From assembly GCA_013289145.1 (NCBI GenBank), contig JABDAM010000001.1, forward strand, positions 4,466 through 68,465: DNA of 64,000 bases, read 5' to 3'. Made by a program: the position numbers and the translations under genes. Shown here piece after piece: positions 4,519 through 62,328 of the stretch; position 1 is the stretch's first letter; each line of letters starts with the position of its first letter. This DNA is from Alphaproteobacteria bacterium (GTDB taxonomy: Bacteria; Pseudomonadota; Alphaproteobacteria; UBA11073). The notes under the pieces were generated by a model that was not told the origin of the DNA, searched no databases, and saw nothing but the letters and a program-made list of their open reading frames with translations.

Positions 4519-7270
<2,752 letters not shown>

Positions 7271-7299: not shown

Positions 7300-7410
7300 G
7301 CGATGCGGCAATGCCGCCGTCACACTCCCTCCGCTGGTACTAACCAGATCAGGTCTTGGGGTTAGGCGCCATGGCACCCTCTCAGCAATTGCACCCCCGG
7401 TGATGCCCTT
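7300..7410 (-). promoter_or_regulatory. TPP (THI-box) riboswitch in the thiC leader
   Basis: The minus-strand sequence reads ggggtgcaattgctgagagggtgcc...acctgatctggttagtaccagcggagggagtg. This matches the GGGGUGC / CUGAGA / ACCUGAUCUGG...CCAGCG.AGGGA THI-element core. A hairpin (gcggcattgccgc) lies downstream before the thiC RBS. Confidence 0.85.
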
Positions 7411-14585: not shown

Positions 14586-15552
14586 AACGCGCGGCGTAAG
14601 TGATGATCATTCTCGCGCCCGCGCGGCGCAGCGCGTGCCAATTCTCAATATGCGCAGCACGCGCATCAAGCAGGCCCTGCGCCGCCGCGGCTTCCACCAT
14701 CGCATGCTCGCCGCTAACGTAATAAGCCGCGAACGGCAGTGGAATTTCCGTGGTCAGCCGCGCCAACACATCCAAATAATGCACCGCCGGTTTGACCATC
14801 AAAATATCCGCGCCCTCTTCCGCGTCGCGCAGCGAACAAATTAACGCATCATCCGTGCGGCGAAAATCCATTTGATAAGTTTTGCGGTCTTGCAATTTCA
14901 ATTTTTTATCCGGTGCGGAATCCTGCGCGATGCGGAACGGCCCATAAAACGCGCTAGCGAATTTTGCCGAATAGCTCATGATCGCCGTGCAGTCCAAATC
15001 CGCGTGATCCAACGCCGTGCGGATCGCCGCAACACGGCCGTCCATCATATCAGACGGCGCCACGCAATCCGCGCCCGCCGCAGCACAATCAACTGCCATC
15101 TCAGCCAATGCGGCAGCACTTTCGGGATTTACGACATGATCCATCGCGTCATTCAAAATTCCGCAATGGCCATGTGCCGTCGAAGCGCATAAACATACAT
15201 CCGCCACCAGCCAGATATCTTCGCCGAATTGTTTTTTCAGTGCGGCGATTTGCGATGCCAGAAATGAATGATCAAATTCACGCGTCGACTTCGCCGCAGG
15301 GGATGCAAAGAGCAAAAATTTAGTCGCGCCGTTTTTCAGATCAAATTCCACCTGACGCAATAAACTATCGGGCGTGTCGCGATGCGTGCCTGGAATACCG
15401 GGAACCTCGGCGCGCGCGGGCAAATTCTCCGCAACAAAGAGGGGCTGAATCATTTGACGATGCGATACGTGTATTTCCGCCACCAAATCGCGCATATGTC
15501 GGCTGGCGCGCTGGCGGCGCTGTTTGAGCGGCTGGAGGAGCAGATTTTGCAC
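14548..15552 (-). CDS. hemB: Porphobilinogen synthase (ALA dehydratase) HemB
   Basis: N-terminal RRQR...R..V motif and a HemB-like body. The 38-nt overlap with hemE suggests the ORF-track C-terminus or the hemE start may be shifted. Confidence 0.9.
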   Translation of the reverse strand: MQNLLLQPLKQRRQRASRHMRDLVAEIHVSHRQMIQPLFVAENLPARAEVPGIPGTHRDTPDSLLRQVEFDLKNGATKFLLFASPAAKSTREFDHSFLASQIAALKKQFGEDIWLVADVCLCASTAHGHCGILNDAMDHVVNPESAAALAEMAVDCAAAGADCVAPSDMMDGRVAAIRTALDHADLDCTAIMSYSAKFASAFYGPFRIAQDSAPDKKLKLQDRKTYQMDFRRTDDALICSLRDAEEGADILMVKPAVHYLDVLARLTTEIPLPFAAYYVSGEHAMVEAAAAQGLLDARAAHIENWHALRRAGARMIITYAARYAREWLREFYGE

Positions 15553-15560
15553 AACCTTAA

Positions 15561-17036
15561 TTAATCAAAAAGCGGCAAAACAACAAGGTTTTTTACGCCT
15601 TGCGCACGTAAATAATCGGCCGTTTTACCCGGCCCGCAAACATGCAAAGCGTTTGGGTGCGCGTAAGAATGCAGTGCCGCGAATTGCTGCGCGCTCGACC
15701 ATTCAATCACATCCGCCGCTGCGAGTTCGGCGAGACATTCGGCAGGCGGCATGGGAATTAATTTATATGTCGCGCAAACCTTGGCATCTCCCCAACCTTC
15801 CTGGGCATCGACATGCGTAAAGATTTCCCATTCGCTCAGCGGCGGCAATTGCAACGCCGGATCGGCGATCAGGTTTCGGATAAAATCAAAGCCGAATCCA
15901 TCCGCGCAGCCCTCCACCCACAGACCCCGCGCGGCGAGGTTTTCCCAACTGGTCATGCCTGAAACCCATAGCCGAGTTTGTAAATTAAAATCATCCGGTA
16001 GCGCACGGGAATTGGCGGCAAAAGCAGCGGCAGCATCGCCGGGCAACGCCGATAATTTTTCCATCTGAAAAATCTTGCGCTGCCAGTCGCGCCCGCGCCA
16101 GATTTTTTTGCCTGTATAATCTGGCGCATTCGGGACACACGTTTCGCCTACTGCCCTGCCCGCTTCATTCGCGCCGCGCACGATCGTCACACCAGACTCC
16201 ATATTCGGCAGATCGACGACCGCCACGCCGAAACGCTGATGACAACCGCCGCCGTGGGCGCGCAGGATATCTAATTCATGTTCAATTTGCGCGGCGCTCG
16301 GCGCGTGGTTCAAAACCGATAAAATTTCTAATGTTTGCGCATCACCCGCGCGTGCTTCAATCGCAATCGCCCCTTGCCCCGGCGCGCCCGGGCAGCGCGT
16401 GAGCGGCAAGACCATCCATTTTAAATCACGCAGCAGATCGAACAAAATTTTCCGGCCTTCATCATCGGCATACAAACGCGACAAACCCGCGAAGGCCAAA
16501 ATGATCCCGTCCAGCGCGCGGTCGCCATCCTCACGCAACCGGCGCAAACGCGTGTCAATATTTCCGCGCAGCGGCGCCATTTTGATTTGCGGTGTCCCCT
16601 TCAATTGCGGCAAAGCAGAACGTAAAAATTCCGGCACCAGTTCATTCCGGCGCGGCGCGGAGGTACCGATTTTTATCGCGCGGCCCGTGCGCAAAATATC
16701 TATAATGTCCGGGCGAAACAACGCCACATCATAAGACGGTGCGCGGCGCGGAATCGCGGCGGTTATTAATCCTGCCGGACGCTGCGTGCCTAAATCTTTC
16801 ATCGAATGAACGGCGAAATCAATTTCACCCGATAATAATTTCTCATCAATGTCACGCGTAAAAATACCAACCGTATCCATTTGCCAGAGCGGCGCGGCTT
16901 GGTCGCGGTCGCCATGCGTGATGATGCCGACGAATTCAATTTCCAATCCCGGATGCGCGGCACACAACGTTTCCGCCACTTGACGCGATTGCGCCATGGC
17001 GAGCAAGGATTTGCGCGTCCCCAATCGTAATTTCAT
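15561..17036 (-). CDS. hemC: Hydroxymethylbilane synthase HemC with an about 180-aa C-terminal extension (possibly a HemD-like domain)
   Basis: N-terminus (LGTRKSLLAMAQS) is classic HemC. 491 aa versus about 310 aa typical. The C-terminal part is unassigned. Confidence 0.85.
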   Translation of the reverse strand: MKLRLGTRKSLLAMAQSRQVAETLCAAHPGLEIEFVGIITHGDRDQAAPLWQMDTVGIFTRDIDEKLLSGEIDFAVHSMKDLGTQRPAGLITAAIPRRAPSYDVALFRPDIIDILRTGRAIKIGTSAPRRNELVPEFLRSALPQLKGTPQIKMAPLRGNIDTRLRRLREDGDRALDGIILAFAGLSRLYADDEGRKILFDLLRDLKWMVLPLTRCPGAPGQGAIAIEARAGDAQTLEILSVLNHAPSAAQIEHELDILRAHGGGCHQRFGVAVVDLPNMESGVTIVRGANEAGRAVGETCVPNAPDYTGKKIWRGRDWQRKIFQMEKLSALPGDAAAAFAANSRALPDDFNLQTRLWVSGMTSWENLAARGLWVEGCADGFGFDFIRNLIADPALQLPPLSEWEIFTHVDAQEGWGDAKVCATYKLIPMPPAECLAELAAADVIEWSSAQQFAALHSYAHPNALHVCGPGKTADYLRAQGVKNLVVLPLFD

Positions 17037-17045
17037 GCTCTTGAT

Positions 17046-18311
17046 TTACGCGGCTTCCAGCAAAGCCGCAAGCGCATCCGATTCCATCGGCGCGGCGCGC
17101 AGCAGGTCGTTGCACGCTTTATTCCGCAAAACGCGTGCCAGCGCCTCAACCAGGTGATCAATTTCCTCATCGCTATGCAGCGGCGAAGGCGTCAGGCGCA
17201 AACACTCCTCGCCCCACGGAACGGTGGGATAATTAATCGGCTGAGCGTAAATACCATATACATGCAGCAAAGCGTCGCTGATATTACGGCATAAAATCGG
17301 ATCGCCGATGACGACGGGTACAATGTGCGACGGCGTATGGCGATATTTAATTCCCGCCCCGGCGAGTTTTTGCTTGAGCGCCCCCGCGCGTTCCTGATGC
17401 CGCGCGCGCATGTCGGGCGAGGCGCGCACAATCTGAATGGATTTGAGCGTCGCCGCGCAAATCGCAGGCGGCAGGGACGTCGTAAAAATAAACCCACGGC
17501 CATAAGACCGGATGCAATCCACAATCCGCGCGTCCGCCGCGATATAACCGCCGATCACGCCGAATGCCTTGGCCAGCGTGCCGTTAATGATGGTGATGCG
17601 ATCCATCAAACCGTCACGCTCCGCCACGCCACCGCCGCGCGCGCCGTACAGACCAACGCCGTGCACTTCGTCCAAATAAGTCATCGCGTTATAACGGTCC
17701 GCTAAATCGCAAATCTCGCGGATTGGCGCAAAATCACCGTCCATGGAATAAACGGATTCAAATACGATAATTTTCGGGCGGCATGCATCGATTCCGCGCA
17801 AAATTTCTTCAACATGCGCGGCGTCGTTATGGCGGAAAATATGTTTTTCCACGCGCGCGTCCTGAATGCCGTGGATCATCGAGGCGTGATTTTTCTCATC
17901 TGACAAAATCACCAAATCCGGAAAAATTTTTCCCAGCGTCGCGAGTGTCGTCTGGTTCGCGACATAAGCCGATGTGAACAGCAACGCGGATTCTTTGCCA
18001 TGCAAATCCGCGATCTCTTCTTCCAATAACAAATGATAATTCGTCGTGCCGGAAATGTTTCGCGTCCCGCCGGAACCCACGCCCACCTGCCCTGCCGTCT
18101 CCGCCAGCGCGCGCACCACGTCAGGATGATTGCTCATGCCCAGGTAATCGTTGCTGCACCAAACGGTGATTTCGGATTGCGAATATTTGCACGGGCGGTA
18201 CGTCGCGCGCGGATACTTTCCTTGAACACGCGACATGTTTTTGAATTTGCGGTAATTGCCCTTTTCCTGGAGCTCCTCAATTTTCGCCGCAAAGACGTTA
18301 TTGTAATCCAT
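17046..18311 (-). CDS. hemA: 5-aminolevulinate synthase (ALAS, PLP-dependent)
   Basis: [23 protein letters not shown] start is typical of alphaproteobacterial ALAS. ATG at 18309-18311. The 30-codon upstream extension in the ORF track is rejected. Confidence 0.9.
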
Positions 18312-19341
18312 TTGCACTCCCGCACGGACAAGCATCACAATGGGCCGGGCAAATCCGGCGGCCCTGTGGCGGAATGTACGGCGGCGAAGGATTCGCCGCA
18401 ACCTGTAAAACCAGACTGCGCAGTTCCTGTATAAAGGCCGGGTGCGTGGAAACCGTGGGAACGCGGCCGTAAAACGGAATACCCTGATCTGCGGCGATAT
18501 GGCCGTATTCTTTATCCAGTTCCACCAAGGTTTCCAGGTGTTCGGAAACGAATGCGAGCGGAATAATGACCAAAGGCACTTTTTCCTCCGCCGCGCGGTG
18601 GATTTCGTCGATGGTATAGGGCTCCACCCATTTTAGCGGTCCCACGCGGCTTTGGTATGTGACTAACCAATCCAGCCCCGGTTCATTCAGTGCGGCGGCG
18701 ATGGCGGCGGCGCTGCGCTGCACCTGAATGCAATAAGGATCGCCGTGATCGCGCACGATTTTTTCCGGCAGGCCATGCGCGGAAAACAGGATGCGCGGCG
18801 TGCCGTGTTTTTTCGCTTCAGCCAAAACGGGCCAAGCCAGATCCGCTTGCGCCCGCACGTAACCGGGCGCGTCAGGGAAACAGCAAATGGTTTGCGTGGG
18901 GATGTTCAGCCCGTGCGCCGCGGCGGCCTGTTCCCATACGCGGACGAATGATGAAGTCGTGGTCGTTGAGAACTGCGGATAGAGTGGCAGTAAAATTACA
19001 CGTTCGGCGCCCCACCCTTTTACTTGACGCACGGTTTCGTCCGCCATGGGGTGCCAGTAACGCTGGGCGGTGAAGATTTTATATTCGCCGCCCAATGCGG
19101 TCTGTAATGCCTCCGTCTGCGCCAAAGTGTTTTTCTGTATCGGCGAGCCGCCGCCCATTATATCGTATTGCGGCGCGACTTTCGGCGCGCGGGTGGTGGA
19201 AATCAGCCAGGCGAGCGGCGTGCGCAACCATCCGGGCAAATCAATAATCGCGGGATCATTGAATAGGTTATACAAAAACGGCTGAATGGCCTCGCGCTTG
19301 TCGGGGCCGCCCAGGTTGTAAATGACGACTGCGGTTTTCAC
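18298..19341 (-). CDS. hemH: Ferrochelatase HemH with a C-terminal Cys-rich tail
   Basis: N-terminus [10 protein letters not shown]. About 347 aa. C-terminal [10 protein letters not shown]. Confidence 0.9.
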
Positions 19342-19956: not shown

Positions 19957-20541
19957 TCAAGCGCCGCACAATTCGAGGAACCGCCGGTGCATCGGCGACG
20001 GCGTGTCGGGCGACAGTTCGGGGTGGAAGGTTGTCGCCATCGTATGGCCATATTCCACCCAGACGGGATGACCGCCATGTTCCGCCAGGATATTCACGCC
20101 CGCGCCGACAGTTTCGATCACGGGCGCGCGGATGAAGGCGACGTCATAGCCGTTGACCTGAGCATGAAAACTGTCGAGCTGGCTGCCGTAGGCGTTGCGC
20201 TGGACGCGGATCGGTAAAGCGCCGAAGGAGAATTGGGCGGGGTTAGTGACTTCATCGGCCAGCAGGATAGCACCCGCGCAGATGCCCCAGGCAGGGCGGG
20301 ATTTGACGAAGGCGCCAATGGGCTCGCGCAGGTGGTAGTAATCCATGATCCGCAGCATGGCGGAACTTTCCCCGCCGGGGAGGATCAGGCCGTCGAGGGC
20401 CGCCAAGTCTTCGGCATGGCGCACCTCCACGGGCTCGGCGCCCCCCATTTCATTGAGAGCGGCGATGTGGGGGTAATGCGGGGTGACGGCGCCTTGCAGC
20501 GCGAGAACTCCGATGCGATACATGAGGTGATAGATGGCCAT
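19957..20541 (-). CDS. pdxT: Pyridoxal 5'-phosphate synthase glutaminase subunit PdxT. The start could be 20523 or 20541.
   Basis: RIGVLALQGA...LILPGGES...GICAG...FHPE triad motifs. Confidence 0.85.
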   Translation of the reverse strand: MAIYHLMYRIGVLALQGAVTPHYPHIAALNEMGGAEPVEVRHAEDLAALDGLILPGGESSAMLRIMDYYHLREPIGAFVKSRPAWGICAGAILLADEVTNPAQFSFGALPIRVQRNAYGSQLDSFHAQVNGYDVAFIRAPVIETVGAGVNILAEHGGHPVWVEYGHTMATTFHPELSPDTPSPMHRRFLELCGA

Positions 20542-20966
20542 CCCCCGCCGCCCGTCAAGAGCCCGAACATAGCCAACCCCGAAAATGCGGAACAATCCCA
20601 TGCACCCGCCGTCTCGGGTTTTTATGTTACGAATTTAATCGTATCTTGGTAAGATTATTATACAACTCTCTCTCATCGTTTTGCTAAGCAATGCCTTAAG
20701 ATAAATTCCCTTCTCCCTGTAGGAAGAAGGTGGCGCAAAGCGCCGGATGAGGGGAGGATGAAAAGGAGGAAAGATCAGTTTTTATCCTGACACCTCCCCT
20801 CACCCGATTTGCTAAGTTCGTTCGCTGCGCCCCTCACTAAGCAAATCTGCCCTCTCCCTACCGGGAGAGGGGAAGCTTTAAAGGGCAAAGTATGAAAGTA
20901 ATAACCATTTTGACAAATAATCCATGGATATGATAAGGTTACACATAACTTTTAAGGAGAAACTTT

Positions 20967-22070
20967 ATGTCTGAAGATCAACGCCCCTCCTTGTGGGAGC
21001 TTTTTAATGTATCCAACACAATCAGTTTACGGGTTCCCGAAGAGGAGCTTATTAACGCAGTCCGTTCAGGACATTATAATGTTAATGCGTTTCTTGATAA
21101 ATTGAATGGTCCGGTGCTTTCCTTTGCGGCACGCATTCCTGGTTTGATTAGTTTGAATGCTGTAGAAGAGCTCCTCCGTGCCGGCGCCGAAACCTGCCCA
21201 GAAGCAAGTCCCTATAAAGGTGGGTGGTCAGCTCTGTTTGAGGCAGCAAATTATGGCAACCTCGCGTACTTAGAGCTTTTCCTAAAGTATCATGCCGACG
21301 CCAAGGAGGTGGGACACAACAACTATACAGCGCTCCACGTAGTAGCGGAAAGAACCAAAGGGAATCCGGAAGACAGAGCAAAGATGGTTGATCTGCTGGC
21401 GGCGGCAGGCGCCGATATCAACGCAAAAACGGCAGACAACGAAACCCCGGTATCACTAGCCGTTAAAGCTGGGAATGTTCCAGTCGTGCTGCGTTTATTT
21501 GCTCACGGCGCGAGCCCCTATCAAACTATGGCCGTAGCGGAAGAGACAGCGAATGGGCAAAAGGAATACAAGCAAAAAGGATTATTGGATCTGGCAACAA
21601 CGGAAGGCATGAAAGACGCCATCCGGCAGGTTCAAGCGGAGCGGAATAAAGAATTCCTCACTCCTTCAAATACACAAAAGGACGTGACGGACCTGAAACA
21701 AATGGTATCGGATCTGACGGATGAGATTGAGGGTCTGAAGGAGGAAGTTGCAAATTTGAAGGATCAAGTTGCAGATTTGAACGGAGCCAATGGGCGTCTG
21801 CAAGGCTGGCGGATAGATCTGGAAAATACGTTAATGGAGCAAGATATTAAAGTGCCGCCCAGACCCTTTGTCCTGGGTGAATCGGCGTTGAATGGCGCGT
21901 CTTATTTGGCAGGAGATGATAATGAGCCGCCAACAGAACCAAGATCCCGTCATGCGACAAATTTTGTAAGAACCGGCCTAGCCGCAGGTGTTGCTCCCGC
22001 AGAGCCAGGGGAGAAGATCGGCGCTAAACCATGGCGCGGCGGTTTCCGCCCGGGCGGCGCGGCGCTGTAA
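20967..22070 (+). CDS. Ankyrin-repeat protein with a central coiled coil, lower G+C. Candidate secreted effector.
   Basis: ANK repeats (NYTALHVVAE...DLLAAAGADINAKT...TPVSLAVKAGNVPVVLRLFAHGASP). A heptad-like LKQMVSDLTDEIEGLKEEVANLKDQVADL stretch. A/T-richer codons than its neighbours. Confidence 0.75.
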   Translation: MSEDQRPSLWELFNVSNTISLRVPEEELINAVRSGHYNVNAFLDKLNGPVLSFAARIPGLISLNAVEELLRAGAETCPEASPYKGGWSALFEAANYGNLAYLELFLKYHADAKEVGHNNYTALHVVAERTKGNPEDRAKMVDLLAAAGADINAKTADNETPVSLAVKAGNVPVVLRLFAHGASPYQTMAVAEETANGQKEYKQKGLLDLATTEGMKDAIRQVQAERNKEFLTPSNTQKDVTDLKQMVSDLTDEIEGLKEEVANLKDQVADLNGANGRLQGWRIDLENTLMEQDIKVPPRPFVLGESALNGASYLAGDDNEPPTEPRSRHATNFVRTGLAAGVAPAEPGEKIGAKPWRGGFRPGGAAL

Positions 22071-22967
22071 TCACCACCCGCGTTTCGCGAGGCGTTGGTC
22101 GGCGTCTATCGTTGCGATTTCAATCCCGCGCATGGCCGCCGGCAGGTTTGTTGATGCCGCCAAAAGATCCGCCGGAGTTTTGTAATGGGCGGTGGCTTTG
22201 ACGATGGCGCGCGCGAATTTCGCGGGATCTTCAGATTTGAAAATGCCGGAGCCGACAAAGACGGCTTCAGCGCCCAATTGCATCACCAGCGCCGCATCGG
22301 CTGGCGTCGCCACGCCGCCCGCGGAGAAATTCGGCACGGGCAAGCGGCCCAGGCGGCGGACTTCGTGCAGCAGTTCATAAGGTGCGCCGAGGTTTTTGGC
22401 TTCGGTCATCAATTCGGCTTCGTCGAGCGACAGCACGCGGCGGATATCCTGGTTGATCTGGCGCATGTGGCGCACGGCTTCAACGACGTTGCCCGTACCC
22501 GCCTCGCCTTTGGTGCGGATCATGGCCGCGCCTTCGCCGATCCGGCGGAGGGCCTCGCCCAGGTTGGTCGCGCCGCAGACGAAGGGAACTTTGAAGGCAT
22601 GCTTGTCGATGTGGAAATTATCGTCGGCGGGAGTCAGGACTTCGCTTTCGTCGATATAATCGACGTTCAAAGCTTCGAGAATTTGCGCTTCGGCGAAATG
22701 GCCGATGCGGCATTTCGCCATGACGGGGATATTGACGGCTTTTTGTACGGCCTGGATTAGTTCCGGCGGCGACATGCGCGCCACGCCGCCGTCGCGGCGG
22801 ATGTCGGACGGCACGCGCTCTAATGCCATCACGGCAACCGCCCCGGCATCCTCGGCAATCTTAGCCTGATCGGCGGTGACGACGTCCATGATGACGCCGC
22901 CCTTAAGCATTTCAGCAAGGCCGGTTTTAAGGTTGCGCGGAGAAGTGGCGGTGGGTTTTGCGTTCAT
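22071..22967 (-). CDS. pdxS: Pyridoxal 5'-phosphate synthase lyase subunit PdxS
   Basis: MNAKPT...LKGGVIMDV...AVMALERVP is PdxS-like. ATG at 22965-22967. The ORF-track extension to 23090 runs through the tRNA and is rejected. Confidence 0.9.
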
Positions 22968-23010
22968 GATTATATCTAGTCTATTTTGTTCGCAGAACAA
23001 AAACAAAGGC

Positions 23011-23096
23011 TGGTGGGTGGGGTAGGATTCGAACCTACGTACGCTCACGCGGGCGGATTTACAATCCGCTGCCATTAACCACTCGACCACCCACCC
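23011..23096 (-). tRNA. tRNA-Tyr (anticodon GTA) with a long variable arm, CCA encoded
   Basis: Reverse complement folds as a cloverleaf: acceptor GGGTGGG/CCCACCC, anticodon loop gattGTAaatc, long extra arm. Confidence 0.9.
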
Positions 23097-23113
23097 AGGA
23101 TGATAAGGAACGC

Positions 23114-25270
23114 TTAAAAAGCTTTTTTATCCGCCGGTGTCAAGCTTTTCGTGTTATCCGGCGCTACATTTCCGGGATCCAGCGGGCTTGCGCCTGTGGT
23201 CGGATCATAGGGGCAATAGGCGTTGAAAAGCATGGATACAACCGTCCGCAAAGCGTCGCAACCTTGGCCGTTATGGCGGGCAATCAGTTCGTTCGGCCCC
23301 AACCAGGTCACGGCATAATTAAACCGGGCAAATTTTTCATTCGCCAGGCGCTGGTAATCAACCCCTGCCCGCTCCGGCGTGGTTATCAAGGTCATGTGAA
23401 TTTTGCGGCCATCCCAACTATCGGGATCATTGATATTAAAGACGTCAATTTTATCCGCGCGCCAGCCCAGGATACTGAGCGATACGGCGTTCAACGCGCC
23501 CAAAACATCCGCTTTATACCGGACATAGGTAAAGACCGGCTTTTCGTGATGGTTTTGCAAGCGTTCTAAATAAATGAGGGTATGAATCTTGTCGGCGATA
23601 AAATGTGAAACGTCATAACCGGCATTGGCGGTGTGCGGCACTTCGCGATAAACCAGTTTCAGGAAGTTGAATTTTTTCTCCTGCGGCAGCGCTTCCCATT
23701 GATGCACCAGCATTTGGTTGTCATCCAGATTGGGTTGATTATACGAGATCCATAATTCCTGATAGGGTTTGTGCGGAAACAAATAGTTATGCACCGCAGG
23801 CACGCACAGAGCAGCGGCGAAGGATAAAACAATCACCGTAATGCCGGCCATCGCGGTTTTGGCGATCGGCGCCTGTTCTGGCCAGCGCCAGTGTGCGGAT
23901 GAGAAAAATTTGCGCGGATGATCCAGCAGCATCGCGCCCTCATTCATAATAAATGCGGTAAATGACGGAATGGTAAAGAGCAAAGCCAACAAGGCAACAT
24001 AACCATAAGGCGGCGCCATGTAATAGACCAATCCTATGGCAACCGCATAACCGATATAAACCATCGCCATCATGCCCGCGATAAAAAGATGCTCCCCTCG
24101 CCGCCGCAATGCAAAAAGCAAAGCGGTCAGGCCCATAAGCGTGCACAAAATACTACTGAGATGACGGAAATCAAAATCATAATTGAATAATATATTGCTG
24201 GTGATGCGCGCCGCGAGGGAACGCGTCACAAATCCCGGGTCCTGGCGCCAGACCTGCATGAATTCTTTTTGAGCTGCGATGTCGTGCTTGGTGTAATCGC
24301 AATAATTATATCGAATGCCGTAATCTTTTTCAGTTTTGGTGAAAACGTATAAATCTTCATCCTCCAGGCCGTATTGGTTGGGATAATGGCCCAGCCCCTG
24401 AAACGCCGTGTGCCAGGACATGCGCGTGGAAAGCGCAAAGTGCCCCATGACGCTGGAGGCGCGCATAACCTGCGGCATGATGGTGAGGGCAAAGATCAAA
24501 AAGAAAATACCGCAATAACGCCGCAATGACGGCACCGTTAAAAACACGGCGATAAAGGTAAGCGCCACGATCAACGCCGTCGACCGCACCCACAGGGTGA
24601 AACCGATCGCGGCGGCGGCCAGGATAATCAGCGGAATGGCGTAAAGGCGTTTGTCGCCCTCCACCAGCGCCCGCCGCGCCCAGATCAAAGATATCACCGC
24701 CAATGAAATCAGCCAGCCTTCCCAGAAATATTGAAAGGGAAAGACCGCCTGATAGGCAAACACCGGATGGACGCCGTAAAATAATCCCGCCATCGTCGCG
24801 GGAATAATCCCCATGCGCAGAAACGTAAAAAATAATAAAAACAACATCACGCCGTCGCAAACCAATTGCAGGCATTCGGCGCGCAAATAACTATCGGGAA
24901 TATCGGTCATCAACTTGCGCGCAATCGCCACGATAATGCCGAAACCGGGATCGAGCGCGAGATAAGTGCATTTGCCGTCTTTGGGAGAGTCGTTCAAAAT
25001 ATAATCACTGATCTGAAGGCGGTGCATGTTGACCATCATGCGCGAGATATCAACCACGCCCAATTTCTCGCCTTTTAACCAGTTTTCCGACATATCGTGG
25101 AAAGTGTAATAATTCGGATGGATCGTTTGATTAGGCGGGATCTGATATAAAAACAAAAAATCAAACCGCGTCGTGAACCAAGACCCAAAACAAAGCAGCA
25201 GCGCGCCCAAAACCAGCCATTGTTTGCCTGTCAGATAAAAATTAAGGCTGGCTTTGGATGGGTTGTCCAT
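23114..25270 (-). CDS. Polytopic membrane protein, 718 aa, about 12 TM plus a C-terminal about 250-aa soluble domain. Paralog of the upstream gene. Function unknown (GT-C-like architecture?).
   Basis: Multiple hydrophobic helices. Conserved loop motifs LDPGFG and [28 protein letters not shown] are shared with its neighbour. Confidence 0.6.
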
Positions 25271-27293
25271 TTAACTCTCCGCATTGATGATTGAAATAAC
25301 GCGCCAATTGCAGCCGCGTTTCGGAACAGCCGTCATGCACATGCGCGCCGATATATTCGCCATTGCCCAGGGCGCGCAGATCCCAGTTCCAATGGTCGAA
25401 TTTTTTTATCATCAATTCATCGACGCGTTGGGCTGATAATAATGTATTAGGCACCAGTTTAATGCGCAGTTGCTTGCCTTCCCATGTCGCCGGGTCGGCA
25501 ACGTCAAAAGAACTGATTTCGGCATAACCGACGCCCGCAATGGATTGCGACGCACGCGCCAGCGGTTCGTAGGTGTCGCTGTCCACCTTCCGGTTGAACC
25601 AGAATTCGCCGCCCGAGCCGTCCAGATTGGTAAAGCTGGCTTCGCGTAAGTTTTGAATGACATATTGGTAAACCGGATCGTCCGGCCCGCTAATATGATT
25701 TTCCGTATGGGATTTCATAAAAGCGATCAGACGCGCATGCACCGCGGGTGGCAGAGCATCAATGCGCTCATGCAGCTTCATAAAGGCTTTTCCCATAATC
25801 ACCGGCGGCGTATCCCAGCGCACGGTGATAACCGGATTAGGCGTGAAATATTGCTGCACCGGCGGGAAAAATAAGACCACCGCGACAATGGCGGAAAACA
25901 ACAGGCCGATATTGACCGGCTGGATTTTATCCTTGTCCCATTTGGGCCAATCGCGCCGGATCGCGCGGCGCACCAATTCACACAGCCCCGCCACCGCGAC
26001 GGCAGAACCGAAAATATTCATCATCTGCGTGGGATAGGAATATTCGCGGTGAATATAATAGACGAATGAATAGGCCGTATTAATCAAAACATACATCATC
26101 GCGGCCAGCAGCGCCAAAACCTGCATATCGCCACCGAGCCACAGGCCGAACATCAAACCCGCCCAGGCGGCGAATAAAATATAATGATCCCAGAAGACGA
26201 AATTCTGATCGCTGAAGTTGCCAAAGATGCTGGCGAACATGCGCTGGGCGATGGAATGGACGATGTAACCCGGATTATCATGCCATAGCGCCTGGTATTT
26301 TTGCTTCATCACCTGGTCTTCCTGGCTGTAATCACAGAAATTATAATTTATATGATCTTCCTGGTGCGAACGTTCGAACAGATATAAATCGTCATCCTCC
26401 AGCGCATATTGGTTGGGATAATGCCCCAGCGCCTGAAAGGCCGTATGCCACGACATGCGCGTGGAATAAGCCAGATGGCCGCTGAGCTGCGTCGCGCGCA
26501 TCACCATACCGCCCGCAAAGAGCACGTAAATCACGGCGGGGTAAATCAGCCAGGGGCGAAGCGTTTTGGAAAAGATCGCCGAGGCGCCGAGCATAATGGG
26601 CGCGAAAATAAACCAGCTGCTGCGGATCCAAACGCCCGCGCCCAAAATCAGGCCGAGCAGAATCGCCAGCGTGATAAGCATCGCCTTTGGCCGGTCGTCT
26701 TTTTGCAGACGGTAAATCCAGAGCAGCAGCAAAACCGACAGCGTCGCCACCAGCCCGTCCCAGAAATGATACCAGGCCGCGTCGGCGCTAAGCGCGAAAA
26801 CGCTGTGCGAGGCATAAAGCAGCGCGCCGAAAACCGCCGGGATCCAGCCCCAGCGGTAAAAGGTCAGATAAAAAAAGATCACCAGCAACGCATCCAAAAA
26901 TAATTGGATGGAAATAATCCGCATTTCCGTATCAGGAATAAAAAACATTATTTTATTCGCGGCCGCGTAAATGCCGCCCAAACCGGGATCCAATGTTTTA
27001 AACGCGCAATATTTATCACCGGGCTGGCGGTCGGTTTTATAAACTTCCTTGGAAGAAAAATCCAAATTGCGCATCAGGCGCATTTCATTAACCTCGCCGA
27101 ATTTATGGCCTTCATCCAGGCTGACGGCGATGTCCTTAAACACCTTTGTCATCGCGTGATGCATCGGCTCAAAATTAAAGATCAGATAAACGCGCGTGCC
27201 GGCCCAACCCGCCAGCACAATCACGAGGCCCAGAGCAAAGAAAAATTTCCGCCAAGCTTGGGCATTGGGGTTTGTCGCGTCGAATTGCATCAT
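25242..27293 (-). CDS. Polytopic membrane protein, 683 aa, tandem paralog of 23114..25270
   Basis: Same architecture. Motifs [34 protein letters not shown] and CDYSQED are shared with the downstream paralog. Confidence 0.6.
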   Translation of the reverse strand: MMQFDATNPNAQAWRKFFFALGLVIVLAGWAGTRVYLIFNFEPMHHAMTKVFKDIAVSLDEGHKFGEVNEMRLMRNLDFSSKEVYKTDRQPGDKYCAFKTLDPGLGGIYAAANKIMFFIPDTEMRIISIQLFLDALLVIFFYLTFYRWGWIPAVFGALLYASHSVFALSADAAWYHFWDGLVATLSVLLLLWIYRLQKDDRPKAMLITLAILLGLILGAGVWIRSSWFIFAPIMLGASAIFSKTLRPWLIYPAVIYVLFAGGMVMRATQLSGHLAYSTRMSWHTAFQALGHYPNQYALEDDDLYLFERSHQEDHINYNFCDYSQEDQVMKQKYQALWHDNPGYIVHSIAQRMFASIFGNFSDQNFVFWDHYILFAAWAGLMFGLWLGGDMQVLALLAAMMYVLINTAYSFVYYIHREYSYPTQMMNIFGSAVAVAGLCELVRRAIRRDWPKWDKDKIQPVNIGLLFSAIVAVVLFFPPVQQYFTPNPVITVRWDTPPVIMGKAFMKLHERIDALPPAVHARLIAFMKSHTENHISGPDDPVYQYVIQNLREASFTNLDGSGGEFWFNRKVDSDTYEPLARASQSIAGVGYAEISSFDVADPATWEGKQLRIKLVPNTLLSAQRVDELMIKKFDHWNWDLRALGNGEYIGAHVHDGCSETRLQLARYFNHQCGELNGQPIQSQP

Positions 27294-27334
27294 GCCAGCT
27301 ATACTTTCTTTACCGGGGCGCGTAAATCCATTGC

Positions 27335-28084
27335 ATGTCGCGCAAATCCGCCCCGCAAAAACAATGGCTTTATGGCTGGCATGCCGTGCTGGCCGCCTGG
27401 GCGAACCCGGCGCGGATTTGTCATCGGTTGTTATTGGGCCTGGATAGCGGGCGCGAATTTCAAGAACGCGCGCAAATGCCTGTGGGCAAAACGCGGCCTG
27501 CCATTGAATACGCCGAACGCGCGAAGTTTGAAAAGATTTTGGGCAAAGGCGCCGTGTTTCAAAACATCGCGGCGGAGTTTACGGAACTCGAACCCCTCGC
27601 CATGCCGGACCTGATCCGCATGGTGAAAATGCGCGAACGCGTGACGTTTATTATGCTCGACCAAGTTACCGATCCGCAAAATGTCGGCGCGATTATGCGC
27701 TCCGCCTATGCCCTCGGCGCGGATGCGATGATTTTGCAAGACCGCCACGCGCCGGATGGCGCGGGCGCACTGGCCAAGGCTGCGTCGGGCGCGCTGGAAT
27801 TATTGCCGATTTGCGAAGTGGTGAACCTGTCGCGCGCGCTGGCCGAATTGGCCGAAGCGGGCTGCGCCGGCCTCGCCCTCGATGAACGCGAAGCGCCTAT
27901 TCATACCGTTAATATTCCCGCCAAAGTCTGCCTCGTCATGGGCGCTGAAGGCGACGGCCTGCGCCCCTCCGTCCGCGCAGCATCCACCCTCGCCGCATCC
28001 CTGCCGACAAGGGCAGATTTCGGGACGTTAAACGTCTCCAACGCCGCCGCGGTGGCGTTATATGAGTGTTTGAAAGTAAAATAA
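27335..28084 (+). CDS. rlmB: TrmH/SpoU-family RNA 2'-O-methyltransferase (RlmB-like)
   Basis: LYGWHAVLAAW N-terminal motif and a C-terminal SPOUT domain (LVMGAEGDGL...LNVSNAAAVALYE). Confidence 0.8.
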   Translation: MSRKSAPQKQWLYGWHAVLAAWANPARICHRLLLGLDSGREFQERAQMPVGKTRPAIEYAERAKFEKILGKGAVFQNIAAEFTELEPLAMPDLIRMVKMRERVTFIMLDQVTDPQNVGAIMRSAYALGADAMILQDRHAPDGAGALAKAASGALELLPICEVVNLSRALAELAEAGCAGLALDEREAPIHTVNIPAKVCLVMGAEGDGLRPSVRAASTLAASLPTRADFGTLNVSNAAAVALYECLKVK

Positions 28085-28125: not shown

Positions 28126-29343
28126 GTGAATTCAAAGGAATATGTTATGAGCAGACAGCATAAAAATACCCAACAGCAGCATCCTCAGGTTAAGAAAACC
28201 CCGCCTCCGGCTAAACCACAACCGGTTTCGGTCATCAGCAATGCAGAAGAAATTAAAGACATTCTTAAAGAAAACGCCATTAGCTTGCAAAAAAAGCTGT
28301 TGCCATCTCCGGGAAAAACACTTGTGAACGGTCTGATTTTCAGCCTTATTTGCAATTTAACGGCATGGATTTTTACAAACACGCTTGACGCCAATCACAT
28401 CCACCCCGTCTTAACCGCGCCAAAAGGGGTAAAAGCGTCCGAACGGCAAGGGCATTATATTTTCAGCGGCTCCGGCCTGACGGCTTATGGGGAGATGAGC
28501 AACAGCCTTTCAGACGCGATGGCAAATAAATTGGGATCGAGTTTCGAAGGCTATGGTTATTACAAAGCCGGCGGCTCCTATATTAACGCCCTGCAAGTTC
28601 AAAGCCCGGAGAACGAATTATCCGTGGGCTTTATGCAATCGGATACCCTACCTTTTATGCGCAGACACGGGGAAAGCAAAACAGCGGATGGCGTAAAAAT
28701 CCTGATGCAAACCCAAGAATACGAAGCAGTTTTTATGCTTACCAACACAGACCGCTTTAAATCTTTGACGGATTTGCAGAATGCCGCGCTGCTTGCTGAA
28801 AAAAAGCCGGGCCTCACGCCTGTGATTGCGACGGCAAGCCATTATACCAGCGGCTCTTATTACACTGCTAAAAATATCGCTGAATGCCTGGGCGGAAAAA
28901 TAAAGGTGACGGATTACGCCACCCCCAGCATCGCCATGGATACCGTCATGGATGGCAATGCCGATATCTGCCTGTTTGTGGAATATCCCGGACCGATCAA
29001 AGATGAAGCGATGGGTTCGCTGAAAAGCTTATTTGATAAAAAGCAAAGCCAGAAAGGCAGCCACCTTTCGCTGCTTAATGTCGGTCTTTCCGATTATAAC
29101 AGAATAAAAGGGCTGAGTAATTATTATAGCGACGCCGATGTTAATATTCCAAATTTCGGCCGGAGGAATGTTCTGGCAACCCGCATTGTGATTGTCGGGC
29201 CGGATCCGGATCACATCCAAGATCCGGCGACGCGGAACAGCGCGGGCTATTTTCAGCAGTTTTTCAAATCCCAAATCACGCCGAATGACGTGAAGCTGAG
29301 TTCCAAAGAAAACATCAAAATCGTTCACGATATTCCACAGTGA
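28126..29343 (+). CDS. Hypothetical protein with one N-proximal TM helix, low G+C (ORFan)
   Basis: Long ORF, A/T-rich codons, hydrophobic segment LVNGLIFSLICNLTAWIF. No motif recognised. Confidence 0.5.
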   Translation: MNSKEYVMSRQHKNTQQQHPQVKKTPPPAKPQPVSVISNAEEIKDILKENAISLQKKLLPSPGKTLVNGLIFSLICNLTAWIFTNTLDANHIHPVLTAPKGVKASERQGHYIFSGSGLTAYGEMSNSLSDAMANKLGSSFEGYGYYKAGGSYINALQVQSPENELSVGFMQSDTLPFMRRHGESKTADGVKILMQTQEYEAVFMLTNTDRFKSLTDLQNAALLAEKKPGLTPVIATASHYTSGSYYTAKNIAECLGGKIKVTDYATPSIAMDTVMDGNADICLFVEYPGPIKDEAMGSLKSLFDKKQSQKGSHLSLLNVGLSDYNRIKGLSNYYSDADVNIPNFGRRNVLATRIVIVGPDPDHIQDPATRNSAGYFQQFFKSQITPNDVKLSSKENIKIVHDIPQ

Positions 29344-30066: not shown

Positions 30067-31599
30067 TTATTGCGCTAAGGCCATTCCGTTCAGGTAACTA
30101 TCAATCTGCTGTTTTTGCGCTTTGGCTGGCTGGAAAACACGGTCATTATAATCCTTATCGACAGCCTTCCAATTTTTGACCGCGTCATCCAGGCGCTTGG
30201 AATCGACGGGAGAAAGAGCGTTGCCCGCCATACGGCGTAAATCCGGAATTGCCCGCCAGATTTCATTATGCGCATCCTCAAGCCGGCCCAGAGAAGTTTC
30301 GGAAGCCTGATCTAAAAGGTTAGAATTACGGCGCCAGAGGTGGGGCGTTTCTTCTTTTAAACAACTTGCAATGCTATCATATTTCAAATTATTCGGATGA
30401 TCTTCTCCCTGTGCTTTATCATAGCTCAATGTTAATTTAAAATTCCCGACATGGTCCAATCGATCCTTCGATGCTGGGATGGGCATCGCAACGAAACCTG
30501 AATAAAAACTGCCTTGCCAATTTCTTAATGTACCCACTGCTTCTCCCGCCTCCGCGAAAGTTATGGTCATGCGCTGCTTGCCGCCATATTGATCAAGCAG
30601 TTTTTGATGATTTTGTAATACAGACAAACGTTGCGCCTCTAGGTTTCGCATCGACTTCGTGCTGTCTTGCAGATAAGTGGTGAGATCTTTAAGGGCAGAA
30701 ATTGAATTCTGCTGATCCGCGCTTTTCACATAATTCAATGCGGCCATGCCAATAGCCAGAGCCATACCGGTTTTCAAAGGCAGGGTGTGCAGGCGGTAGT
30801 TTTTGCGAATCCATGTTGGATCTTCCTTATTTGTCGACCATGGCGCGACAATTGCAAGACCACGAAAAGCCGCCAGGGGGAAAGCAAAACCAACCAACAT
30901 CCGCCCCCAGAAATTGACATGCGCTGGATGAGCATTACAATCTGCGGAGGCATATATAAGAGCGGATATCACAGCCCCAGTATAATGCCCAAAGCGCCTC
31001 ATCCCCATATCACATAGAGATCCTGTAGAGTCTTCTATGGCTGCAGCAAAATACGGATAATTATCCTTACTCAGCTTCCAATTTTCCCACTTCACGCTGG
31101 CAGCGATTTTTTGCCCGGTGCGGCGCAGGCCTTGGCCGGCGGCTTGCGCTTTTGTCACAAGATAGTTTTTTGCCGCGATTTTGTGGCGTTGCAAAGCTGC
31201 ACGGCGCGGCGGCAGGGTCAGTGTTTTTTCCAAATCACGTGGCAAAATGCCGCCCTTTAACTCTACCGCGACATAGGTTAGCAGGCGGTCAAGATCATAT
31301 TGCAAATCTCTTGCGGCTTTGCCGTCATAACTATGCGGACGGCGGCCATTTTCAGCACCCAGCCAACCCTCCATGGTTTTGCGAATATCCGCCCCGGTAA
31401 CTGTGTGTTGTGCTGTCTGATCTAAATCCGCGTTTTCCTTGCCAAGACCGTATGCGCTGGAAATCGCGCTGACCAGGGCCTTTGGATCTTTCATGCCTTC
31501 AAACCGTTCGGCATCAAGCTTGCCCAGCAAATCTTCCAGCTGGAACGCAGTTTGGCTCGCCTGTTCAGCTTCGGCGCCATTATATAATTCGTGCTGCAA
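30067..31599 (-). CDS. Hypothetical 510-aa protein with a central bilobed hydrophobic segment, lower G+C. Candidate effector / membrane-inserting protein.
   Basis: Hydrophobic region AVISALIYASAD...MLVGFAFPLAAFRGLAIVAPW inside an otherwise hydrophilic protein. No motif recognised. Confidence 0.5.
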   Translation of the reverse strand: MQHELYNGAEAEQASQTAFQLEDLLGKLDAERFEGMKDPKALVSAISSAYGLGKENADLDQTAQHTVTGADIRKTMEGWLGAENGRRPHSYDGKAARDLQYDLDRLLTYVAVELKGGILPRDLEKTLTLPPRRAALQRHKIAAKNYLVTKAQAAGQGLRRTGQKIAASVKWENWKLSKDNYPYFAAAIEDSTGSLCDMGMRRFGHYTGAVISALIYASADCNAHPAHVNFWGRMLVGFAFPLAAFRGLAIVAPWSTNKEDPTWIRKNYRLHTLPLKTGMALAIGMAALNYVKSADQQNSISALKDLTTYLQDSTKSMRNLEAQRLSVLQNHQKLLDQYGGKQRMTITFAEAGEAVGTLRNWQGSFYSGFVAMPIPASKDRLDHVGNFKLTLSYDKAQGEDHPNNLKYDSIASCLKEETPHLWRRNSNLLDQASETSLGRLEDAHNEIWRAIPDLRRMAGNALSPVDSKRLDDAVKNWKAVDKDYNDRVFQPAKAQKQQIDSYLNGMALAQ

Positions 31600-31669: not shown

Positions 31670-32314
31670 TTAAAATACTTTCATCCATGCGGTGCGCAGC
31701 GCCGCATCCAAATCCGCCATCGTAGCCCCCACGCCCAGCGCGGCGAGTGACGTAACGCCATGCTCGCTGATGCCGCAGGGCACGATACCGGCGTAATGCG
31801 ATAGGTCCGGCGCGACGTTGATGGAAACACCGTGGAAAGTGATCCAGTGCCGCAATCGCACGCCGATGGCGGCGATTTTATCTTCGCGGCCACTGGGCGT
31901 TGCAACCCATAACCCCACTCGCCCCTCGCGGCGTTCGGCATTCACGCCGAATTCACGCAACGACAAAATCACCCACTCTTCCAAATTCCAGACATATTTG
32001 CGCACGTCTTGCCCGCCGCGTTTTTTCAAATCCAGCATCACATAAGCAATCCGCTGTCCCGGGCCGTGATAGGTATATTGGCCGCCCCGCCCCGTTTCAA
32101 AAACTGGAAATCGCGCATCCAGCAAATCCGCCACGCGCGCCGAAGTCCCCGCGGTATAGAGCGGCGGATGTTCAAGCAGCCAAACGCATTCACCGGATGT
32201 GCCGGACCATTCATCCGCCGCACCCGCGCGGATGTCGGCGACGCGCTGTTCCATGAACGCCAGCGCATCGGGGTATTCAACCAAACCGTCGGATGTTTTC
32301 CATTCTATCTGCAT
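31670..32314 (-). CDS. lipB: Octanoyltransferase LipB
   Basis: [11 protein letters not shown] and C-terminal GVxxxKI / catalytic-Cys region typical of LipB. Confidence 0.85.
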
Positions 32315-32853
32315 TACTCATACTTCAATTCCGGCAGCCGACGGCCCATTTCTTTTTTCCCGCCTTCTATGTTTTGGGCCAATTGTATTTTTTGCGCGTC
32401 TGTCAGTTCATTGCTGACAAGCAAATGGGGTATCTTAAAAAATAATTTCTTGGCAATTTGCAATTGCAGCACATGGGTTCCCAGATATTCATTACGCTGG
32501 TCGAGCTTTGTTTCATAATGCTCGGCGGAATCAAATTCGGCGATCTCCGACAAATTTTGCGACCACAGACCGGATTCCGCGCCTTTTTCGTAATAAAACA
32601 CTTGCTCTGGGTGCGCCTTGAAAACGCTAAGAAACGCAGTCCCTGAATGCCTTGCGCTAAAATATGTCTCCACCAAATCCCAGCAGGCAAACGCATGCAG
32701 CAGCGGGCCGTCATTTTCCTCACCATATAATGTTCTTTGCCAGTCGGGATGCTTTGTGATCCGAAACAAAAAAGCGGCGGCGGGCGAATTACGGGACCAT
32801 TCCATCGGCACCGCGCTATACGACAAACTATCGAAAATATCTTTCATCTTCAT
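32314..32853 (-). CDS. Hypothetical protein (179 aa), lower G+C
   Basis: ORF only. No motif recognised. Confidence 0.45.
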
Positions 32854-33350
32854 GCCTCATTATTTCGTTCTTCAAATACACCAGTTTGGATATTTTTTCT
32901 GACTTGCGCCGCATCGAAGACACGTCCGTTCATCGCGACATAAACCCCCGGCGGCAAAGTTTGCGCGGCCACGATGGCGCCGCCCAAATTAAAACTAGCG
33001 TCGGAACGCAGCAATGCAAACGGCCGCATCGCGCCTGTCAGAACAACGGTTTTACCCGGCACCGCGCCGTTCAGGTATTCAGCCGTCTGCGCCATGGTGC
33101 TGGTGCCGTGGGTGAGGACGATTGCTTCTTCCGTACGCGCCAGAATGGCATGTTTCATCGCTTCGCGGTCCTGATCCGTAATATCCAAACTGTCTTTTTG
33201 CATCAGGATTTGGTACGGCACATCCTTGACCCGGCATTCGCGCAAAATATCCGAGATGTGCGACTGGCCGGTAAAGACCAGCTTTTCCGTAATCGGATCG
33301 TGGTCTTTGTCAATCGTGCCGCCGGTGGCGAGGATGCAGATATCGTTCAT
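32850..33350 (-). CDS. Short asparaginase/glutaminase-domain protein (166 aa)
   Basis: ILATGGTI threonine-containing signature of the asparaginase N-terminal domain. Much shorter than AnsA/AnsB. Confidence 0.6.
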   Translation of the reverse strand: MNDICILATGGTIDKDHDPITEKLVFTGQSHISDILRECRVKDVPYQILMQKDSLDITDQDREAMKHAILARTEEAIVLTHGTSTMAQTAEYLNGAVPGKTVVLTGAMRPFALLRSDASFNLGGAIVAAQTLPPGVYVAMNGRVFDAAQVRKNIQTGVFEERNNEA

Positions 33351-50204: not shown

Positions 50205-50272
50205 CCCGTCCCCCTGGGGCTGCAAACCTGGCGGACAGTAGAAGATTCTTGCCTATAAAGAAACGATAAACG

Positions 50273-52279: not shown

Positions 52280-52416
52280 GCACACCTCCTTATAAGTTAA
52301 TCAAGTACTTTCAGGGTAACAGGAATTTATCTAAAATTCAATGAATTTATTACTTGCAAGCCGATGGAAGCTGAAAAATCTTGACTTCAAACACTTAAAC
52401 TCAACATAAAAGACAA

Positions 52417-62201: not shown

Positions 62202-62328
62202 AAAAACCTCTAAGAACATTCCACCACATCGGGTTTAAATTTCCGTAAAGAATAGATAGAATTATCGATAAATTGTTGCTGTAACCTTTTGTCTCAGCCG
62301 CGCGAATAAAACAGCAGGAGAGCCAATC

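Follow-up and report, generated by a model that had tools for sequence, protein, structure and literature searches.

Glycosyltransferases of the GT-C superfamily use lipid-linked sugars to build or decorate much of the bacterial envelope from its outer face, in tasks that include lipid A modification and resistance, O-antigen seroconversion, the building of arabinan and the glycosylation of proteins. ArnT, a member of this superfamily, possesses 13 transmembrane (TM) helices, in PMT enzymes the TM helices are arranged 7+4 around a large TM7-TM8 loop, and the pairs EmbA-EmbB and Pmt1-Pmt2 consist of paralogous GT-C enzymes that assemble as heterodimers. Two adjacent alphaproteobacterial genes, here called A and B, encode polytopic membrane proteins that invite comparison with these systems; the genes lie in a 64,000-nucleotide (nt) stretch of contig JABDAM010000001.1, which was analysed as a whole and is referred to as the window. 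Their products are probably inner-membrane glycosyltransferases of the GT-C fold that act on lipid-linked donors and are distantly related to the PMT_2/ArnT-type clan.

The features by which such enzymes are recognized are well described. The membrane domain of the GT-C superfamily consists of 7-13 TM helices (PMC11127046), a conserved catalytic Asp or Glu is found in the extracytoplasmic loop after TM1 (PMC11127046, PMC12041299), and the donors are polyprenyl-(di)phosphate-linked sugars. In the structural subclass GT-C_A, TM1-7 form an N-terminal module in which TM3 is kinked and two juxtamembrane (JM) helices are placed between TM1 and TM2, and all enzymes of the subclass have an essential Asp at the tip of JM1 (PMC12041299). 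Periplasmic glycosylation can be carried out by three components, namely a GtrA flippase, a GtrB-like GT2 enzyme and a GT-C transferase, as exemplified by GT136, and new GT-C families are still being added, GT136 itself dating from 2024 (PMC11127046). In Rhizobium leguminosarum, RgtA and RgtB are paralogous ArnT-like galacturonosyl transferases that modify the outer 3-deoxy-D-manno-oct-2-ulosonic acid (Kdo) of lipopolysaccharide (LPS), acting on the same acceptor region (PMC4402001).

Predicted fold, topology and family relationships

The assignment of A and B rests first of all on fold. An AlphaFold2 model of B, built on the family alignment, has a predicted local distance difference test score (pLDDT) of 89.3 and a predicted template modelling score (pTM) of 0.87, and its Foldseek matches in the PDB are all GT-C glycosyltransferases at ranks 1-11, each with a probability of 1.00. 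The best match is AglB (7e9s, expectation value (E) 2.7e-6), followed by further AglB structures (3waj, 3wak and 5gmy, E 4.4e-5 to 5.4e-5), ArnT (5ezm and 5f15, E 1.2e-4 and 4.3e-4), human STT3A (8pn9, E 5.5e-4), and Pmt4, ALG3 and ALG9 (E 8.6e-3 to 4.5e-2). AftA, WaaL (7tpg, E 0.12, probability 0.72), AftD and EmbC appear lower in the list. The first-pass annotation, which had itself proposed a Foldseek search with an AlphaFold model, saw in the pair a resemblance either to GT-C glycosyltransferases or to polymerase/ligase-type membrane enzymes; the GT-C part of that suggestion is upheld by the eleven top matches and by a sequence bridge to PMT_2 described below, and the polymerase/ligase part is disfavoured by the poor E value of WaaL.

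The model of B consists of seven TM helices, a 96-residue loop, four TM helices and a C-terminal domain, with the N-terminus predicted to lie inside and the C-terminus outside, an arrangement with which hydropathy and the positive-inside rule agree. The resulting 11 TM helices are one fewer than the approximately 12 first proposed and lie within the 7-13 range of the superfamily. A break at residue 168 divides TM3 into helices 155-167 and 169-176, a kink that is described as typical of GT-C_A enzymes (PMC12041299), and the first periplasmic loop after TM1 (EL1) holds short helices at 54-65, 75-82 and 109-120. By the model, A and B appear most like the GT-C_A subclass, to which the best matches, AglB, ArnT and STT3, all belong. 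For topology, the helices of the B model were combined with counts of Lys plus Arg in short loops over the 26 sequences of the core-family alignment, which covers both the A-like and B-like clades. The mean count is 14.1 on the inferred cytoplasmic side as compared to 1.4 on the periplasmic side, a distribution that supports the earlier placement of the motifs outside the cytoplasm. EL1, R229, R270, the signature-bearing TM7-TM8 loop and the C-terminal domain are all predicted to be periplasmic; the N-in/C-out orientation therefore brings all invariant motifs to the periplasmic side, and all family-invariant polar residues are, by prediction, on the periplasmic face.

The three motifs originally quoted, namely LDPG, the LGHYPNQY signature and CDY(T/S)xxD, are present in both proteins at equivalent positions (Table 1), and they form part of a much larger conserved set. 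The alignment contains 47 invariant columns, each kept by both clades. In B numbering, these include H51, D107-P108-G109, D126, R130, Q135, D139, R200, R229, R250 and R270 in the N-terminal part, S281-T-R-M, W286-H-T-A, N298, D304, D306, D330 and R355 from the signature loop onward, and C671 and C686 in the C-terminal domain. EL1, where the catalytic acid of a GT-C enzyme would be expected, carries H51, D/E59, G67, G71, R77, D107-P108-G109 and D126, position 59 being Asp or Glu in 26/26 sequences and D107 and D126 each being present in 26/26. The W-H...G-L-G..P-N.Y-G...D part of the signature is kept in distant relatives: among 96 remote relatives, conservation is 98% for N298, 96% for R229, 93-95% for two Gly residues, 79% for D306 and 76-78% for W286/H287. 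No Pfam or NCBIfam model matched the STRMSWHTA...PN.YG.ED.D loop.

Neither A nor B carries the signature of a described relative, in keeping with the earlier failure to recognize ArnT, PMT, PglB or YfhO signatures, none of which were found in Pfam and NCBIfam scans of the two proteins. The PMT_2 (PF13231) and PMT models give no match to A or B even at E 10, and only distant relatives match them; nor did the Pfam models Wzy_C (PF04932), YfhO, Arabinose_trans (Emb), GT87, Glyco_transf_22 or STT3 match A or B. Pfam found no MIR domain in either protein, and the WW[DE]xG (WWDYG-type) motif is absent from both. An OppC_N match in the Pfam and NCBIfam scans was dismissed as chance.

The link to known families comes instead through distant relatives. 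An exhaustive search of 1.84 billion cluster representatives with a hidden Markov model of the family returned 181 proteins at E<=1e-3, only 21 of which reached E<=1e-30. A PMT_2 match in Pfam was obtained for 16 of the 89 distant relatives that were scanned, and single relatives match PMT and, weakly, GT87 and Glyco_transf_22, all GT-C families. Four of these proteins, P0095, P0114, P0116 and P0131, score 37-41 bits against PMT_2, above its gathering score of 26.1, and match the family profile at E 6e-9 to 1e-6 in a search of the whole library. When the family was compared by hhalign with 13 members of the PMT_2-positive group, the two aligned with 99.8% probability and E 6e-30 over 406 columns (B 19-442), an alignment that lines up PG(Y/F), Q135..D139, R229, W-H...G-L-G..P-N.Y-G...D, D330 and R355. 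Thus fold, the hhalign bridge and the conserved residues together assign A and B to the GT-C clan, in a family distinct from PMT_2. A 430-amino-acid (aa) cluster of remote relatives considered as the PMT_2-positive group proved not to be so, the true groups being found separately.

Within the core family, identity is 39-68% within clades and 26-31% between them, and in a neighbour-joining tree clades A and B stand apart from each other and from further clades (P0030, P0031 and P0032-35). Because the tree separates the clades, the A/B duplication predates diversification of the lineage. One family member, P0034 (1306 aa), was considered as a fusion of two copies, and has one family domain only, at residues 9-647; the other 650 aa, rich in R, G, V and D, resemble an artefact of read-through or antisense translation.

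The soluble C-terminal domain spans about 200-220 aa rather than the 250 aa first estimated. A separate model of B 498-718 (pLDDT 88.5) has no significant relative in the PDB by Foldseek (best E 0.025, TM-score about 0.26), no AglB, PglB or oligosaccharyltransferase (OST) domain is present among the top 50 matches listed, and profile searching of PDB sequences likewise gave nothing significant. In a family-profile search of the whole library, the domain occurs outside the family only as the short fragments P0043 and P0056, and it seems to be a periplasmic module specific to the family, which probably gives acceptor recognition. The invariant pair C671 and C686 fits a periplasmic disulfide and thus a location of the domain outside the cytoplasm; an (S/T)-W-x-G motif is also conserved. 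Two independent signals hint at a Hedgehog-N/LAS (peptidase M15) sub-fold in the domain: Hedgehog N-domains among its Foldseek matches (E 0.15-0.37, target-normalised TM-score 0.33-0.41), and a Peptidase_M15_4 match to residues 614-686 of relative P0039 (E 0.14). Both are weak, neither is significant, and a His/Asp metal triad is absent among the invariant residues of the family.

Proposed activity and competing explanations

In the mechanism proposed for A and B, a GT2 enzyme would make a polyprenyl-phosphate-linked sugar at the membrane's cytoplasmic side, the donor would be flipped, and each of A and B would move the sugar from the flipped donor to a periplasmic envelope acceptor, most likely a surface polysaccharide or LPS. 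An acid in EL1 would serve as catalytic base, the candidates being D/E59, D107 and D126, and R130, R229, R270 and R283, together with H287, N298, D304 and D306 of the signature, may bind the phosphate or sugar of the donor, or a metal. No invariant residue has been lost from either paralog, and hence both are probably active enzymes. A role in envelope modification is suggested by family membership and genomic context.

The genomic contexts of distant relatives bear on the nature of donor and acceptor. The gene of relative P0087 overlaps that of a 346-aa GT2, with a GtrA gene next in order, all set inside a GT4/Wzy_C/GT4/AsnB cluster (locus L019), and relative P0151 is fused to GtrA. P0053, P0114 and P0065 lie in or beside polysaccharide or AsnB-like genes, relatives are found in Wzx/GT4/Wzy-like clusters, and P0070 and P0073 carry CBM_4_9 or Laminin_G_3 (lectin) domains. 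The combinations with GT2 and GtrA, the GtrA fusion and the glycan clusters point to lipid-phosphate-sugar donors and glycan acceptors for the relatives and, by extension, for A and B. A surface-polysaccharide-type cluster adjoins the A/B pair in three core-family loci (L002, L017 and L018); its genes encode a GT2 (L017), GT4/GT1-type glycosyltransferases and two AsnB-like amidotransferases (L002 and L017), methyltransferases (all three loci) and a TIGR04326-like protein (L018). The GT2 of L017 was considered as a possible ArnC/GtrB-type polyprenyl-phosphate transferase; its NCBIfam matches are to generic GT2 models only and far below all cut-offs.

Organization of the two genes raises the further question of whether their products work together. 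The first-pass annotation described two adjacent, paralogous genes of about 700 aa each with a 29-nt overlap, and it was accurate in this respect: the reading frames are as described (Table 1), and BLASTP aligns A and B over their full length with 29% identity across about 700 columns (E 2e-79), far beyond chance. The GGAG Shine-Dalgarno sequence for B is situated inside gene A, 6 nt ahead of the B ATG, and the A/B junction is a translational-coupling junction. The A-then-B order with an overlap of 17-32 nt is found in 10 contig types, and such overlaps recur in L001, L002, L005, L006, L017 and L018. Conserved order and overlapping, coupled genes suggest that A and B form a hetero-oligomer, as do EmbA-EmbB and Pmt1-Pmt2, or that each makes an addition to one acceptor, consecutively or in parallel, in the manner of RgtA and RgtB. 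This pairing, and the equimolar production that would go with it, is the weakest step of the proposal.

A number of observations weigh against assignment of A and B as paired GT-C glycosyltransferases. The Foldseek TM-scores are low (0.25-0.36 normalised to query), neither protein has a family match in Pfam or NCBIfam at E up to 10, and searches of PDB sequences with single sequences and with family profiles gave no significant match, hits to MexB and ribosomal proteins being compositional noise. Three candidate acids remain, and one of them, D107, is not conserved in the 96 distant relatives. The 64-kb window contains no GT2, flippase or glycan-biosynthesis gene. With respect to pairing, the 13-kb contig of locus L016 bears only one B-like gene (P0010, 751 aa, at 1116-3371 beside SpoU) and no A, and because of this lone gene an obligate heterodimer is less likely. 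Locus L005 (1398-7654), by comparison, has three tandem paralogs after the SpoU methylase, in the order P0030 of a third clade, an A-like gene and a B-like gene.

One alternative is that A and B glycosylate periplasmic or outer-membrane proteins in the manner of PMT or OST enzymes, with the C-terminal domain binding peptide. The best fold matches are indeed oligosaccharyltransferases (AglB and STT3A), Pmt4 is also listed, the 7+4 helices of B with their large TM7-TM8 loop reproduce the PMT layout, and the (S/T)-W-x-G motif is conserved in a periplasmic domain. The features expected of such enzymes are nonetheless missing, since motif and Pfam searches found neither WWDYG, MIR nor STT3 features, the top 50 Foldseek matches listed for the C-terminal domain include no AglB/PglB C-terminal domain, and relatives are found in polysaccharide clusters rather than protein-glycosylation loci. 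Protein glycosylation is accordingly regarded as unlikely. A different chemistry would apply if A and B were Wzy, WaaL or shape-family polymerases or ligases that use undecaprenyl-diphosphate-linked glycans, a possibility brought up by the WaaL structure in the Foldseek list, by sub-threshold Wzy_C matches in two distant relatives (P0052, E 0.019, and P0101, E 0.029) and by the presence of relatives in Wzx/Wzy-type clusters. Yet the 11 best fold matches are GT-C enzymes with mono- or diphosphate donors, the best of them more than four orders of magnitude beyond WaaL (2.7e-6 versus 0.12), the sequence bridge leads to PMT_2 and not to Wzy_C, and in L019 a separate Wzy_C gene is already present next to the relative, in addition to a GT2 and GtrA typical of monophosphate-sugar donors. 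The ranking of fold matches and the bridge to PMT_2 are the reasons for which GT-C transfer is favoured, and a polymerase or ligase is considered distinctly improbable.

It could also be argued that A and B have only borrowed a GT-C-like scaffold for a structural, sensory or transport role, or that one paralog is an inactive partner. Such an explanation would accommodate the lack of a direct Pfam or NCBIfam match to any catalytic family, the low TM-scores to solved GT-C enzymes and the window's lack of glycan genes. It fits poorly with the 47 invariant columns, which are mostly periplasmic D, R, H and N and have the pattern of an active site rather than a scaffold, with the fact that neither clade has lost any of them, and with a signature of the N298/D306 type kept in 79-98% of the 96 distant relatives; a non-enzymatic or half-inactive pair is very unlikely indeed. 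Glycosyl transfer by both A and B from lipid-linked donors is thus retained as the preferred interpretation.

Features, distribution and genomic neighbourhood

Table 1. Features of the A/B locus, with residues in protein numbering and positions in the window.
Feature	Residues	Positions	Strand	Remarks
Gene A		25242..27293	-	683-aa polytopic membrane protein; upstream paralog, clade A
LDPGLG motif of A	101-106	26976..26993	-	
28-aa signature of A	277-304	26382..26465	-	ends (G/A)LGHYPNQY(G/A)LED(E/D)DLY
CDYSQED motif of A	320-326	26316..26336	-	
C-terminal domain of A	483-683	25245..25847	-	periplasmic, homologous to that of B (family alignments)
A/B junction		25242..25280	-	29-nt coding overlap 25242-25270, GGAG 25277-25280
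Gene B		23114..25270	-	718-aa polytopic membrane protein; downstream paralog, clade B
EL1 of B	44-127	24890..25141	-	first periplasmic loop, after TM1; short helices
LDPGFG motif of B	106-111	24938..24955	-	N-terminal tip of helix 109-120
TM7-TM8 loop of B	276-371	24158..24445	-	large periplasmic loop; holds the family signature
28-aa signature of B	281-308	24347..24430	-	ends (G/A)LGHYPNQY(G/A)LED(E/D)DLY
CDYTKHD motif of B	324-330	24281..24301	-	D330 invariant
C-terminal domain of B	498-690	23201..23779	-	periplasmic alpha/beta domain; invariant Cys pair C671, C686
RlmB-like SpoU rRNA methyltransferase		27335..28084	+	divergent neighbour; Pfam and NCBIfam matches

The core family comprises about 30 sequences, including 14 orthologs of gene A. 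Word-indexed searches of 5.8 billion proteins gave 15 matches for each paralog, annotated as 'hypothetical' at most, and the only source labels on core-family matches are metagenome-assembled genomes called Alphaproteobacteria or Rhodospirillaceae. A scan of 185,579 species with one genome each recovered 1 locus (Rhodospirillaceae bacterium UBA11073), and 241 million metagenome records yielded seven. GyrA of the window is 65-67% identical to its nearest named cultured relatives (Azospirillum and Skermanella) and 75-92% identical to a few proteins from metagenomes or assemblies, and the host therefore belongs to an uncultured alphaproteobacterial lineage. The family is very rare and restricted to a few uncultured alphaproteobacteria. 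Neighbourhood and phyletic analysis, which had been recommended at the outset, thus describes a rare family with a recurrent A-then-B order.

Two of the family loci have peculiarities of their own. The single gene of L016 carries, immediately ahead of TM8, a hydrophobic 41-aa insert that might provide two more TM helices, and the B-like gene of L005 is split at about residue 229 into open reading frames (ORFs) of 244 and 479 aa, which could reflect a frameshift, a pseudogene or an assembly error.

The RlmB-like SpoU methyltransferase is the only conserved immediate neighbour of the family (L001, L002, L005, L006, L016 and L018), and it is probably part of the chromosomal backbone rather than a functional partner; SodB, LipB, malic enzyme, CoaD-like and GyrA backbone genes are likewise found in L006/L007. 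A tRNA-Tyr gene (23011-23096, minus strand) does lie 17 nt past the stop codon of B, as the first-pass annotation pointed out, but it is not kept in related genomes; because related loci are without it, the adjacency is probably incidental, and it was rejected as meaningful. A scan of 22900-27700 for promoters and terminators gave counts no better than those in shuffled sequence. A 510-aa protein (30067-31599) was considered as a conserved partner similar to the 508-562-aa proteins that adjoin the pair in L017 and L018, and BLASTP shows no relationship between them. The core-family loci examined contain no GT2 or GtrA gene adjoining A/B, with the exception of the generic GT2 in the neighbouring cluster of L017.

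An AsnB-like (Asn_synthase) gene is found near family members in five independent loci (L002, L017, L019, L021 and L022), with the core family at one end of the range and very distant relatives at the other. Such neighbours may reflect amidated uronic-acid sugars in the glycans, or may be mere polysaccharide-cluster context.

The remainder of the window is largely occupied by genes for thiamine and haem biosynthesis, PdxS/T, SodB, LipB, malic enzyme, H+-pyrophosphatase, GyrA, NAD biosynthesis, UvrA and enolase. The thiamine cluster includes thiC (5585-7258), a DAO-family oxidase that is likely ThiO, ThiG and a ThiD-ThiE fusion (2026-3540), and at its head, immediately upstream of thiC, is a thiamine pyrophosphate riboswitch (7308-7408, minus strand; Rfam RF00059, 62 bits). 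The haem cluster (10901-19341) starts with an aminotransferase similar to 5-aminolevulinate synthase, and it contains a porphobilinogen deaminase ORF (15561-17036, minus strand) of 491 aa in which the Pfam domain covers only residues 3-236; the approximately 250 extra aa may represent uroporphyrinogen-III synthase in fused form, or some other domain. The mechanically called PdxS ORF (22071-23090, minus strand) runs upstream through tRNA-Tyr, and since SOR_SNZ starts near residue 53 of the ORF, the real PdxS start is at about 22970.

Between pdxT (19957-20601) and pdxS (22071-22970) lies a gene for an ankyrin-repeat protein with a C-terminal coiled-coil-like region (20967-22070, plus strand), and a zeta-toxin-like gene is found at 57815-58702; the two hint at a host-associated lifestyle. 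The asparaginase locus (32314-33350, minus strand) is apparently split, with a 166-aa ORF for the N-terminal domain (32850-33350) that overlaps by 4 nt a 179-aa ORF (32314-32853) without a Pfam match, and may represent a frameshifted or a two-piece gene. For eleven ORFs of 162-608 aa Pfam gives no match at E<=1e-5, which makes orphans unusually frequent for an otherwise housekeeping region (28126-29343, 30067-31599, 33470-35296, 42132-43238, 47720-48352, 49320-50225, 51797-52285, 52417-52935, 53046-53765, 56781-57695 and 61389-62219).

Comparison with known glycosyltransferase systems

A and B define a family that is invisible to current profile libraries. Its invariant set of periplasmic residues could be probed by mutagenesis, its periplasmic domain lacks any relative of solved structure, and the pair is a natural two-paralog system in which to ask how GT-C enzymes divide labour or pair. 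Its impact is limited because the family is so rare, being found in few uncultured alphaproteobacteria only. A more far-reaching proposal is that A and B found a new CAZy-level GT-C family, defined by the STRMSWHTA...PN.YG.ED.D loop and a C-terminal fold unseen in the PDB, whose members act as an obligate hetero-oligomer on a lineage-specific envelope glycoconjugate, in a possibly host-associated lineage, with donor or acceptor chemistry beyond that of ArnT, PMT, OST and Emb enzymes; taken as a whole this is conceivable, although doubtful.

The nearest described enzymes are those of the PMT_2/ArnT type, with which A and B share a polytopic inner-membrane structure, a periplasmic active face, a C-terminal periplasmic domain and, for ArnT, a fold match at E 1.2e-4. 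They differ from these enzymes in the signature loop between TM7 and TM8, in a C-terminal domain without a PDB relative and in their tandem arrangement, and their 11 TM helices contrast with the 13 of ArnT, the lipid A aminoarabinose transferase of GT83. RgtA and RgtB offer an alphaproteobacterial precedent for two paralogous membrane transferases that make neighbouring additions. No likeness in sequence was seen, none having been looked for; A and B are about 200 aa longer than the Rgt proteins and possess an extra periplasmic domain. Emb enzymes similarly have a C-terminal periplasmic domain, and EmbC and Pmt4 are among the fold matches of B, whereas A and B have no Arabinose_trans or PMT match in Pfam and neither a MIR domain nor a carbohydrate-binding module, and their pairing is deduced from gene overlap and order.

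Three-component glycosylation systems provide the remaining comparison. Distant relatives show the canonical arrangement, with GT2 followed by GtrA next to P0087 and a GtrA fusion in P0151; A and B, by contrast, have no such GT2 gene and no gene for a GtrA-type or small-multidrug-type flippase in the window or beside the pair in related loci, save for the generic GT2 of L017. Partner genes for a GT2 and a flippase, if they exist, are thus elsewhere in the genome. Viewed against all of these systems, A and B constitute a new and narrowly distributed family within the known GT-C superfamily, a divergent branch of it rather than a new kind of machine.

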